DNA of 64,000 nt from Candidatus Thorarchaeota archaeon (GTDB lineage: Archaea; Asgardarchaeota; Thorarchaeia; Thorarchaeales; Thorarchaeaceae): assembly GCA_011364985.1 (NCBI GenBank), contig RDOC01000002.1, positions 160,001 to 224,000 on the forward strand, given 5' to 3'. Made by a program: the position numbers and the translations under genes. This document shows positions 8,695 through 48,450 of this stretch, piece by piece. Numbering within the stretch: position 1 is the stretch's first letter; the number at the start of each line of letters is the position of its first letter. Under the pieces are notes generated by a model. That model was not told the origin of the DNA. It did not search any database and saw only the letters and a list, made by a program, of their open reading frames with translations.

Positions 8695-9401
8695 CTAGCT
8701 GCATCTTCCTTGATGAATATCAGGAACATCGGCAGGACAACTATCAGATAAGCGTCCTTGTTCACACTTTCAAGGCTACTGAGTTATCATTCTACTGCCA
8801 CTAGAGATGCAACGTAGCTCTATCTAGCAGCATTCGTACTATTTTGCATCTTGTGCATGGTGCTGATGATTGTACAAACTCAACCTTTCTGCCAATTCAC
8901 TGAGGATACAGCCGCCATCACCATTCTCCAGCAGCTTAGCACTTACCAAACTGACTATCTATATAGTACCCCGACCGAATATATAAAGCATAATTAATTA
9001 ATCAATTAACTTATTTATTACTGCGGCGATGCAAAGAGGATTACTTGAATATCGTGTTTATCATATTCATCTTAGTTCATCCAGCAAAACCTGAAACTCT
9101 AGCAAAAACTCATTTTCATTTACAATATTGTAGTCTGATAAATCTCCCTCTTCAAGCTGGTGATATAAGTATTCCAGAAGAGATTCATGAAATCTTTCTG
9201 TTGACAGTTACATCGGATGGAGAAAGGGTGGAATACAGAAGTTACATGCAGTTGAATTCGCTCAACATTGGAGTGATGTAACAGGTCCGCAATGGACTGT
9301 AGGGGATGTCAATATCAATACGCATAACTCGAAATGAATTGGAGCTAGGGAGGTCAAGCAGCAATCCTTTTAACATCATGAACTAGCACAAAATGCGGAA
9401 T

Positions 9402-9598
9402 CGGAGCGTAGCTCAATCTGGCAGTCTTGTGCACATCAGTGTACTCGGCCATTAGCAATGGACTGTAGAGAGCGGCCATCGTGACAGCTGTTCGCAGCTA
9501 TCCATCGGTTGCCGGTTCGGCACGATTACCTGCGAATTGTGCGCCGAAAAAATCGCATGTGAATTCCACAAGTGATGGCAATCCGGCCGCTCCGACCA
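9402..9598 (+). tRNA. tRNA-Tyr(GTA) with introns 9425-9453, 9469-9499 and probably 9519-9548 and 9552-9581
   Basis: Acceptor CGGAGCG/CGCTCCG (C1:G72), A73, encoded CCA; ATGGA-CT-GTA-GA-TCCAT; GCCGG/CCGGC T stem; splices to a 77-nt cloverleaf. Confidence 0.93.
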
Positions 9599-16310: not shown

Positions 16311-16979
16311 CTCTATGTTGCAATTGGTCGTTTGAAGAACATCAGAAATACAGCGCACAAGGGTAATTTCAAGGGAAGAAAGTTCAGGGGCATGATACAC
16401 TCATGGGCCTTTGCTAGGATTACTGAAAGCCTTAGGCATGGGCTTACTCAGCTTGGGTGGAAGGCTGATGGAAAAAACTCTCGTTTTCGAGTTGTGCCTG
16501 AAATTTAGACTTCTATCATGTACTGGAAGTGTGGAGCTAAGGGAATACGACCCAAACAGAGCTACTTCAGATGCCTTTCGTGTGGTCGCCAGACAAATGC
16601 TGATAGGAATGGAGCCATCAATATCGCCGGACGCCTTATTACGCTTACAAAGTCATTGCACTCTGTGAGAGGACTAGGTAAGTGGGCCGACTCTGTCCAG
16701 AGGACAGGGAAGCGTTCACGACTGAAAGCCCGAAAGAAGAAGCCTTCTCAAGGGAAGTCCTTACTCTCAAGAATGGAACAATCATCAAGTTCCAGAGAGT
16801 CCGCGGCTGTTCACTTTGTTCAATCGGACCTTACCAGTTTCAGCGATGACACTGAAAAGAGTGATCATGACCCCGCCATGGAAAGAACTGTGGAAAAGCT
16901 CTCTGTTGCTGGAAGTGATGCAGCCAGAATTCGACAGGAGAAAGAAGTCAGGTCTTCAGGAGGGATCCCATCCCAATGA
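16311..16979 (+). pseudogene. tnpB: TnpB pseudogene, C-terminal half
   Basis: LYVAIGRLKNIR..HSWAFARIT..VPEI*TSIMYWKC..NADRNGAINIA; collinear with 27029-28705; internal TAG. Confidence 0.88.
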
Positions 16980-17130
16980 AGGTTGACAATGCTCTTGCTA
17001 ATTCTTGTATTTCAAATGAAATACGAAGAGGTGGTGACACTGGCAGGAGAAGGGCGGAACACAGAGGTTTCTTACAGTTGTGTTCACTCACAAGAAATTG
17101 TAAGAAATAGGTTGTAATACAGGTGCTTTA
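16980..17130 (+). ncRNA. Putative TnpB omega/re-RNA 3' scaffold plus guide, copy 1 (RNA probably begins inside the ORF)
   Basis: Conserved blocks ggttgacaatgctcttgctaat, ggcggaacacagaggtttc, gttcactcacaa; terminal hairpin tttcttacagtt/aattgtaagaaa. Confidence 0.65.
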
Positions 17131-24470: not shown

Positions 24471-24578
24471 GCCCCTGTAGTGTAGTACGGTCAGTACTCC
24501 AGATGACCTGAAGTATCCGGAATAGCATTCAAGACTGTCACTCTTGAGACCCGGGTTCGAATCCCGGCGGGGGCGCCA
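24471..24578 (+). tRNA. tRNA-Asp(GTC) with 30-nt D-loop intron (24493-24522)
   Basis: GCCCCTG/CGGGGGC, G73, CCA; CAAGA-CT-GTC-AC-TCTTG; relaxed BHB ACGG-TCA / CCGG-AAT restores CGGTCTAGCAT. Confidence 0.95.
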
Positions 24579-27028: not shown

Positions 27029-28705
27029 ATGGCTCGGTTTCAAGGAACTACAATCAGCGTCAAGGTCCCGATAAACTGGGAAGCAATGACGATGAAATCT
27101 AAGCAGAGGCTTAGACAGATTGTAGGAAGGGACACGAGGGTGATTCGTGCATTTCTCGGGATAATCGAACAACATGAAAACGACTTGCTTGCTGGTCGCA
27201 ATAAGCATCGAATTCATGACGGGAAGCTAGACAAGCTTACCATGACCGCACTCAGAGTCAAGGCTGGCTATGCTCAAAGAGCCAGTGTTCCTCATGACTT
27301 CAAGGCTCGCTTCCCACGCATCTCCCAAAACGAGATAACCGAGTGTCGACAGACTGCTGTTGCTCTCTACAAGAGCTACCTGAAACTTAGAGCTAAAAGA
27401 GGCTTGAATGTTTCACGACCAGCGTCAATCAATCAAAGCCGACGGATACCAAGATGGGTCTTTTCGCAGAGATTCAAACTTCTTGAGAGAAGTACTGCTG
27501 CTTCACGATGGTGGCTTGATATTAGGGACTCTCTTGACTCAGTACAAGAGGGACGAACATTTCATGACCGACTGAATATTCCCCTAAAGATGTCACCTTT
27601 CCACTTCAACCAGATTAAACGAGGCGATGTGAAGGCAGTTCAAATCTTTACTGACCGCTTTGGGAAGTGGTGGGCAACCATTGCGGTTAGGATTTTTACA
27701 GACCTACCTCCCAAAGAGGATCTTCCGATAGGAATCCTTGGAATTGACTTGGGTATTGAAAAGGCAGCCTGCTCGACACTGATTACACCGAAGAAAACAA
27801 GAGAAACAAGGTACTTTGTCCAGCGGCAGAAAGTCAAGGTCATCAAGAAGTACGACAGACTTGTTGCTGACCTTCAGAGGACGATGCAGAATCACAAAAG
27901 TAACGGACTTCCATATGACAAGATGGCGAAAAAGCTCCGGCAGATGAAAGCCAAGAGAGAGAATGTTGCTAAAGAGTACGACCGTGTTCTTCTTCGCCAG
28001 ATTCTCGACTACATCTTAGATCTATCGGAGAAGTATACACTCTATGTTGCCATTGGTCGCCTGAAGAATATACGACTACGTGCTAAACGAGGAAACTACA
28101 AGGGGCGAAGGTTCAGAGCAATGATTCATTCATGGGCCTTTGCTCGAATAACAGATGGCCTCAAACATGGCCTCGCTCAGCAGGGGTGGAAGGTCGATGG
28201 AAAGGATACCTGCTTTAGAGCTGTTCCAGAGGCATGGACTTCTATCATGTGCTGGAAATGCGGGAGCAAGGGAACACGTCCCAAACAGAATTACTTCCAT
28301 TGTACCTCCTGTGGACACAAGACCAATGCTGACAGAAATGGTAGTATCAACATTGCAGCACGTATGCTCATGCTCACAAAGTCACTGCACTCTGTGAGAG
28401 GACTAGGTATGTGGACTAGGGCTGTAGATAGGGCTCGACGTGCGCGACCGAAAGCCCGAAAGAAGAAGTCTTCTCAAGGGAAGTCCTTACTCTCCTCTAA
28501 GGATTCAACATCAAATCTTGGAGAGTCCGCGGCTGTTCACTTTGTCCAGTCGGACTTTGCTGGCTTCAGTGATGAAACAAGCGAGAGTGATGATGACCCC
28601 GTCGTGGCAAATACTGTGAAAGCTCTCTCTGTCATTGAGGGTGATGACTCAATAGCAATACAGGAGAAAGAAGCCAGGTCTTCAGGAGGGATTCCATCCC
28701 GATGA
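27029..28705 (+). CDS. tnpB: TnpB-family RNA-guided endonuclease with rearranged RuvC-II
   Basis: LGIDLG (RuvC-I), VAIGRL (Gly at canonical Glu), VPEAWTSIMCWKCG, CTSCG Zn finger, NADRNGSINIA (RuvC-III). Confidence 0.92.
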   Translation: MARFQGTTISVKVPINWEAMTMKSKQRLRQIVGRDTRVIRAFLGIIEQHENDLLAGRNKHRIHDGKLDKLTMTALRVKAGYAQRASVPHDFKARFPRISQNEITECRQTAVALYKSYLKLRAKRGLNVSRPASINQSRRIPRWVFSQRFKLLERSTAASRWWLDIRDSLDSVQEGRTFHDRLNIPLKMSPFHFNQIKRGDVKAVQIFTDRFGKWWATIAVRIFTDLPPKEDLPIGILGIDLGIEKAACSTLITPKKTRETRYFVQRQKVKVIKKYDRLVADLQRTMQNHKSNGLPYDKMAKKLRQMKAKRENVAKEYDRVLLRQILDYILDLSEKYTLYVAIGRLKNIRLRAKRGNYKGRRFRAMIHSWAFARITDGLKHGLAQQGWKVDGKDTCFRAVPEAWTSIMCWKCGSKGTRPKQNYFHCTSCGHKTNADRNGSINIAARMLMLTKSLHSVRGLGMWTRAVDRARRARPKARKKKSSQGKSLLSSKDSTSNLGESAAVHFVQSDFAGFSDETSESDDDPVVANTVKALSVIEGDDSIAIQEKEARSSGGIPSR

Positions 28706-28850
28706 TGGTTGACAATGCTCTTGCTAATCTAGGAATCCATTGGATTCCAAGAGGTGGCGACACTGGCAAGAGAGGGGCGGAACACAGAGGTTTCATGCAG
28801 TTGTGGTTCACTCACAATTTTAAAAGCAGGTCATACACTACAGGGGCTCG
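28706..28850 (+). ncRNA. Putative TnpB omega/re-RNA 3' scaffold plus guide, copy 2
   Basis: Same conserved blocks as 16980-17111; the variable hairpin differs in sequence but still pairs (ggaatcca-t-tggattcc vs gtatttca-aa-tgaaatac). Confidence 0.7.
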
Positions 28851-48118: not shown

Positions 48119-48258
48119 GTGTGGACAATGCCTTCGCCATTTCTCAGATAATACTGGGTGTTGCGTTGACGCTCGTCTAAGGAAGGGGAGGACACAGAAG
48201 TTTCGATAGTCGGAGTTCACTCGACTTGTAGAAACAGGCCAGGTCTTGGTAAGAAATC
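48119..48258 (+). ncRNA. Putative omega/re-RNA scaffold plus guide, copy 3 (orphan)
   Basis: gacaatgc, acacaga, gtttc..gttcactc..gaaacagg blocks as in copies 1 and 2. Confidence 0.55.
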
Positions 48259-48307
48259 AATGAGAGAATTCAGTTGAACTACTGACTGTATATTGACAGA
48301 AGGAAAA

Positions 48308-48450
48308 TGGCGCTGAGGGAGAGATTTTCAATTCTCGTAGAAACCATGAGAATCTTTGAACTCTCGAGTGCATAGCACACTGGATGTTTGCTGAACTGCT
48401 ACAAGCAATCAATAGCAATCCAGCGCCATACCAGGCTTGGCTACCTCAGC
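48308..48450 (-). tRNA. tRNA-Ser(GCT) with introns at 37/38 (48386-48412) and 59/60 (48325-48354)
   Basis: GCTGAGG/CCTCAGC, G73, CCA, long variable arm; BHBs TTGC/GCAA and TTCA/TGAA. Confidence 0.95.

Follow-up and report, generated by a model that had tools for sequence, protein, structure and literature searches.

A tRNA-Tyr gene in the window (the whole 64,000-nt stretch analyzed, from contig RDOC01000002.1 of a Candidatus Thorarchaeota archaeon, genome G000) carries 60 extra nucleotides in its T-loop, which raises the questions of how many introns interrupt the gene and in what order they would have to leave the precursor. The locus, window positions 9402-9598 on the forward strand, encodes tRNA-Tyr(GUA) and is interrupted by four BHB-type introns, with one exon of 3 nt. 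Exon 1 (9402-9424, 23 nt) holds tRNA nucleotides 1-22 including 17a, exon 2 (9454-9468, 15 nt) nucleotides 23-37 with the anticodon GTA at 9465-9467, exon 3 (9500-9518, 19 nt) nucleotides 38-56, exon 4 (9549-9551, 3 nt) the AAA of nucleotides 57-59, and exon 5 (9582-9598, 17 nt) nucleotides 60-76 with A73 and an encoded CCA; exon 4 has an equal layout in G002, a distant Thorarchaeote. The spliced tRNA is a complete cloverleaf of 77 nt with 7/4/5/5 stem pairs. The pair C1-G72 and the base A73 are identity elements of archaeal tRNA-Tyr, and both are present. A near-identical spliced product was called tRNA-Tyr by ARAGORN (with intron 1 placed one base off), and the unspliced gene was missed by both ARAGORN and Rfam. 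A T-rich motif at 9367-9373 (forward strand), found at a comparable position in many relatives, is likely to act as the archaeal TATA box, and we infer transcription of the gene and its cut sites in vivo. Three metatranscriptome contig sets from the same study gave no match at the locus and are uninformative on expression. No second tRNA-Tyr gene was found in the assembly; since the genome is only 74% complete, another copy could be missing.

The introns, all on the forward strand, were assessed against a BHB definition of a 4-bp central helix, 3-nt bulges, and a cut after the second bulge base. Intron 1 (9425-9453, 29 nt) interrupts site 22/23 with the central helix TGGC/GCCA (4/4 pairs) and one exon-side outer pair, and intron 3 (9519-9548, 30 nt) interrupts site 56/57 with CGGT/GCCG (4/4 pairs), an 8-bp stem, and no exon-side helix; both motifs are therefore relaxed. 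Intron 2 (9469-9499, 31 nt) lies at the canonical site 37/38 with CTGT/GCAG (4/4 pairs) and is the only one of the four to form the full hBHBh'. Intron 4 (9552-9581, 30 nt) lies at site 59/60 and, once intron 3 is removed, forms the central helix TTCA/TGGC with 3/4 pairs and U54 mismatched, which places it in the relaxed class. When BHB-like introns of 25-65 nt were stripped in any order by an automated search and the product was scored, the four-intron parse ranked first (94.0 vs 69.2 for the runner-up). The preliminary description of this locus had named a tRNA-Tyr with four introns and a 3-nt micro-exon, and clear BHBs at 22/23 and 37/38; its coordinates and pairings were verified, and the relatives agree with it.

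The sequence by itself permits two mature T-loops, TTCGAAT after removal of one 60-nt intron or TTCAAAT after removal of two 30-nt introns. The latter division, around the AAA exon, had been proposed beforehand and is borne out by G020 and G106, genomes of two other genera, in which the first 30 nt have a homologue that stands alone at 56/57 and is followed directly by AAAT. Among the four carriers of intron 3 (G000, G002, G020, and G106), helix and stem are paired in 48/48 cells, and two stem pairs are changed on both sides, in a set of only four related sequences. The first base of the intron is G, A, A, or T across these carriers, so it behaves as an unpaired bulge base and not as the conserved purine 57. 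Unrelated introns occur alone at each site: at 59/60 in G011 and G100, with a 30-nt layout like that of intron 4, and at 56/57 in G025, also of 30 nt. A homologue of intron 4 alone was found in no relative. In one comparison of parsed tRNA-Tyr genes, all others except that of G005 give the mature loop TTCAAAT. Collectively, two T-loop introns instead of a single 60-nt intron are well supported by these sequence comparisons. The same T-loop insert is also held by a genome of the same genus. A search of 400 Asgard genomes for introns at both 56/57 and 59/60, by a pattern covering only GG-ending T-stems with encoded CCA, gave 33 matches, of which by inspection only those in G000 and G002 were tRNAs. 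Scanning all genomes with a loose pattern returned chance matches only, and the exact junction pattern had no match in metagenomes. Placement of intron 4 at 57/58 or 58/59, with a 2- or 1-nt exon, would leave the mature sequence unchanged, and was rejected by inspection because no helix or no intron stem results.

Two EndA genes and RtcB are encoded in the genome. The EndA alpha subunit resembles Aeropyrum EndA most closely and retains an aligned lysine in the specificity loop, and an Aeropyrum-like EndA with this lysine has been reported for Asgard archaea (PMC5829648). The two-subunit EndA of this genome is, as judged from its sequence, a predicted broad-specificity enzyme. We propose that this endonuclease would do the cutting and RtcB the joining. 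The motifs of the D-loop and anticodon introns would be present from the start. The central helix of intron 3 uses nucleotides 51-54 and consequently competes with the T-stem, which must be open for the helix to form. With the T-stem open, intron 3 would pair with these nucleotides and be excised first, after which the T-stem would re-form and hold the ends during ligation of C56 to A57. The central helix of intron 4 spans the 56/57 junction, with the T-stem as its outer helix. In silico, it has 2/4 central pairs before removal of intron 3, and 3/4 central pairs plus a 5/5 outer helix afterwards, in keeping with the earlier suggestion that TTCA/TGGC needs intron 3 to be gone. Only after ligation would U55, C56, and A57 be aligned with the end of intron 4 to give the relaxed motif at 59/60. 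The route would therefore run from cutting of intron 3 to ligation, then to cutting of intron 4 and a second ligation, and the three-base exon would never be free. On this model, removal at 56/57 first and at 59/60 afterwards is the likely order. Two further 59/60 introns of the genome, those of the elongator tRNA-Met and of tRNA-Asn, likewise mispair at position 54, so the mismatch appears to be tolerated. Taking these parts together, we give a probability of roughly 85% to the reading that the gene is a functional Thorarchaeota tRNA-Tyr(GUA) gene whose four BHB introns are spliced by the two-subunit EndA and RtcB, intron 3 before intron 4.

Folding with ViennaRNA does not favor the T-arm motifs: the helix probability was 0.00-0.33 for intron 3 and about 0 for intron 4, and the intron-4 BHB has a free energy of -14.6 kcal/mol vs -19.0 kcal/mol for an open internal loop. 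Minimum-free-energy folding was given little weight because it misses most BHBs, the canonical one included. In the isolated T-arm, a competing 4/4 helix between the end of intron 3 (9543-9546) and the end of intron 4 (9576-9579) is favorable; in the model, such a helix could misdirect cutting and cause loss of the exon.

These data bear on several other readings of the gene. If the T-loop insert were one 60-nt intron at 57/58 (9520-9579), the gene would have three introns and a mature TTCGAAT loop; such splicing also yields a valid cloverleaf, its central helix would have 3/4 pairs, and G57 is present in G005, whose acceptor-stem type matches that of the window gene. However, on the intron side only 1 of the first 10 positions would pair, so that no stem forms; this intron is absent from the top parses though 60-nt introns were allowed, and its first half is a stand-alone 30-nt intron in two genomes. 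On the comparative data this arrangement is unlikely, and we give it the least credence of all. A gene that is poorly spliced or dead, with the alternative intron-end helix causing loss of the AAA exon and another tRNA-Tyr gene doing the work, would suit the stability of that 4/4 helix in the isolated arm (-27.3 vs -20.3 kcal/mol) and the incomplete assembly. It is nevertheless very improbable: the exons are intact with C1-G72, A73, and CCA, every intron stem is kept, the only tRNA-Tyr gene detected in G002 contains the same T-loop cassette, an exon-side helix is missing from the alternative motif, whose loop is 6 nt, and the search of the genome yielded no other tRNA-Tyr gene that could substitute.

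More credible, though still unlikely, is a gene with four introns and no strict order of removal, in which a broad-specificity EndA would cut intron 4 through its relaxed 3' bulge regardless of intron 3. Two-subunit enzymes do cut relaxed substrates (PMC3239211), loss of intron 4 first would leave the arrangement seen in the G020 and G106 genes, still a productive precursor, and the helix of intron 4 after splicing is weak in any case. Against this, the intron has only half of its central pairs while intron 3 is present, and the three-base exon would be set free if both introns were cut ahead of ligation.

The history of the gene was examined among its relatives. Of 67 parsed tRNA-Tyr genes, 26 are intron-less and 41 bear introns. 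Introns at 22/23 similar to intron 1 were found in G035, G022, G012, G023, G005, and G011. G002 has the same T-loop intron pair around the same AAA exon; its tRNA-Tyr gene, like that of G011, also has four introns, and the intron sets differ. The 63-nt T-loop cassettes of G000 and G002 are identical at 60/63 positions, and identity at fourfold sites near EndA is only 29% between the two genomes, the EndA region having been used as the measure of divergence because RtcB had no match in G002. Elsewhere the two tRNA-Tyr genes differ in the acceptor stem, the D-loop intron, and the anticodon intron, and over its 5' part the window gene is similar to that of G035, from another genus. With a near-identical cassette, a divergent remainder, and a G035-like 5' part, the gene looks like a recombinant mosaic. 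The cassette identity suggests horizontal exchange between lineages; strong selection on the intron sequence is a possible alternative. Intron 3 may have come first; an allele that already had it may then have acquired intron 4, and both may have moved together between lineages by recombination.

About 100 nt upstream of the tRNA-Tyr gene lies an orphan right end of a TnpB cassette, an omega-RNA-like conserved element at 9187-9288 (forward strand; profile match E 1e-17), and directly after its end, in the guide position, 9289-9302 (forward strand) is a 14-nt exact copy of tRNA-Tyr nucleotides 24-37, within exon 2. No TnpB ORF was matched by tblastn at this locus, which holds the cassette end only. 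In G002 the same element follows a 588-aa TnpB ORF and precedes a guide, and elsewhere in G000 it likewise stands after a TnpB ORF and before a guide. With one fixed profile search, the element was detected in the fetched flank of 18/41 intron-bearing and 1/26 intron-less tRNA-Tyr genes (Fisher p 2.6e-4, which is overstated because kin are not independent); the single intron-less case is a weak match with no guide match. The guide-position sequences match differing parts and strands of the intron-free tRNA-Tyr consensus. In 16/16 resolved cases, counted without a null expectation and with G087, G088, and G091 left out since their element ends were not located by pattern, the host allele departs from the consensus, through substitutions or an intron, within the 13-nt target or the 5 nt on its 5' side. 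The guide of G020 spans the 56/57 junction, the site of its intron-3 homologue, and the guide of G011 spans its 59/60 intron. No single TAM was derived for all guide types, which have different sequences on the 5' side of their predicted targets.

One tentative explanation, to which we give somewhat less than even odds, is that the introns accumulated as shields in RNA-guided homing by TnpB cassettes beside tRNA-Tyr. Cassettes would settle by the gene carrying guides that target its intron-free form. An allele would escape cutting if an intron, or recoded bases, lay in the target or immediately 5' of it, and such alleles would spread by recombination together with the cassette. At 22/23, the intron would protect against the neighboring guide; those at 56/57 and 59/60 would protect against T-arm guides of the kind found next to the G020 and G011 genes, whose matches cover precisely these two junctions. 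Repeated cycles could build the four-intron mosaic together with its forced splicing order. Speaking against homing, no single TAM emerged, the cassette at the tRNA-Tyr locus is a remnant, and an open-frame TnpB in the window has a guide that matches the tRNA-Asp gene of its own genome perfectly, with no intron at the flank. It is possible, instead, that the guide-like copies are leftover insertion sites. Collaborative homing (Bonocora and Shub 2009; Zeng 2009; reviewed in PMC13565253), in which a free-standing endonuclease works together with an intron that shields, likewise places a nuclease module beside a conserved gene and aims it at the intron-free allele. The system predicted from sequence here differs in its RNA-guided TnpB, a putative nuclease, in its protein-spliced tRNA intron, and in a tRNA-Tyr locus that keeps the cassette end alone. 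Homing of this kind, if true, would be a specific and testable route for the spread of archaeal tRNA introns: guide-bearing TnpB ends are found next to alleles with introns and hardly ever next to those without, and one pair of introns shows almost no divergence between genomes with saturated synonymous sites.

Several features of the TnpB cassettes and tRNA-Tyr loci were observed in passing. In L003, L005, L007, L250, L256, and L271, the adjacent guide fits the common acceptor-stem allele, and the tRNA-Tyr acceptor stem of the same genome is recoded and still paired, which looks, from the sequences, like escape by substitution. In L003, L017, L022, L024, and L050, the 3' half of tRNA-Tyr, starting near nucleotide 31, is copied 1-5 kb from the gene, as is typical of mobile-element integration sites. 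In the TnpB of G002 (L054:1657-3423, reverse strand), the usual RuvC-II glutamate is apparently absent and one lies downstream, before the zinc finger, an arrangement that presumably resembles that of rearranged-site TnpB and Fanzor proteins.

The preliminary description had taken three introns as the most known per tRNA, a ceiling also stated in PMC3239211 (Fujishima 2011) and since passed. Supplementary Data 4 of PMC11291895 (Valentin-Alvarado 2024) lists four-intron tRNAs, namely Trp in Atabeyarchaeia-2 and Arg-TCT, Ile2, and Leu-GAG in Freyarchaeia, and up to five introns per tRNA are reported in bioRxiv 10.64898/2026.10.13.758758 (Goswami 2026). Like the window gene, these Asgard multi-intron genes carry several short non-canonical BHB introns each, missed by standard finders. 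Both studies center on Atabeyarchaeia and Jordarchaeia, and 'Thor' is absent from the main text of the preprint, which offers no route of intron arrival, reports no mobile elements nearby in its panel, and states the question of arrival to be open. Internal exons of the listed four-intron genes, computed for genes with coordinates, are at least 7 nt, whereas that of the window gene is 3 nt. In the ARMAN-2 pre-tRNA-Pro(GGG) (PMC3239211), two introns also share one T-loop, at 53/54 and 59/60; its intervening exon is 6 nt, its motifs are strict, and its enzyme is of the epsilon2 type, unlike the window gene with its 3-nt exon and a second central helix that spans the first splice junction. An ordered motif is also described for nested crenarchaeal pre-tRNAs (Sugahara 2007; Tocchini-Valentini 2009; cited in PMC3728597 and PMC3978253), in which the last BHB forms only after another intron is spliced and the EndA is likewise of the two-subunit type; in those accounts they have at most three introns, against four here. 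Among the papers compared here, none describes 56/57 plus 59/60 introns with a 3-nt exon. The novelty is modest, as many-intron Asgard tRNAs, double T-loop introns, and ordered splicing were already known; new here are the 60/63 cassette identity with a distant Thorarchaeote and the association of TnpB ends with intron-bearing tRNA-Tyr genes. The gene offers a compact substrate on which ordered tRNA splicing could be tested: only three bases separate its two 30-nt T-loop introns, and ligation would be needed between two cutting steps, or else the exon is lost. It also extends heavy tRNA interruption to Thorarchaeota genes invisible to standard finders.

Other TnpB copies and interrupted tRNA genes are present in this genome. 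In the window, a 558-aa TnpB ORF is followed by the same element (27029-28847), and the 14 nt after this element are antisense to nucleotides 1-14 of a tRNA-Asp gene (24471-24578) 4.3 kb upstream. That tRNA gene contains an intron of 30 nt in its D-loop, at 20a/20b, which falls outside both the guide target and its 5-nt flank. At about 16316-17094, a broken TnpB with an internal stop is followed by an element copy with no tRNA match after it, and at 48157-48450 an element copy adjoins a reverse-strand tRNA-Ser(GCT) gene with anticodon-region and 59/60 introns. Outside the window, the tRNA-Asn(GTT) gene at C16:187305-187529 (reverse strand) gives a clean cloverleaf minus five introns (22/23, 28/29, 37/38, 43/44, and 59/60), and its CCA is not encoded. 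A tRNA-Met gene (C15:147347-147515) and a tRNA-Thr(TGT) gene (C15:149799-149953, reverse strand) hold inserts of 50-62 nt that are best parsed as an intron within an intron, although these parses are not unique. The tRNA-Phe gene at C16:18494-18600 has a lone 56/57 intron; the gene shares its T-stem with tRNA-Tyr, and the intron has the six 3' bases of tRNA-Tyr intron 3 and a different stem.
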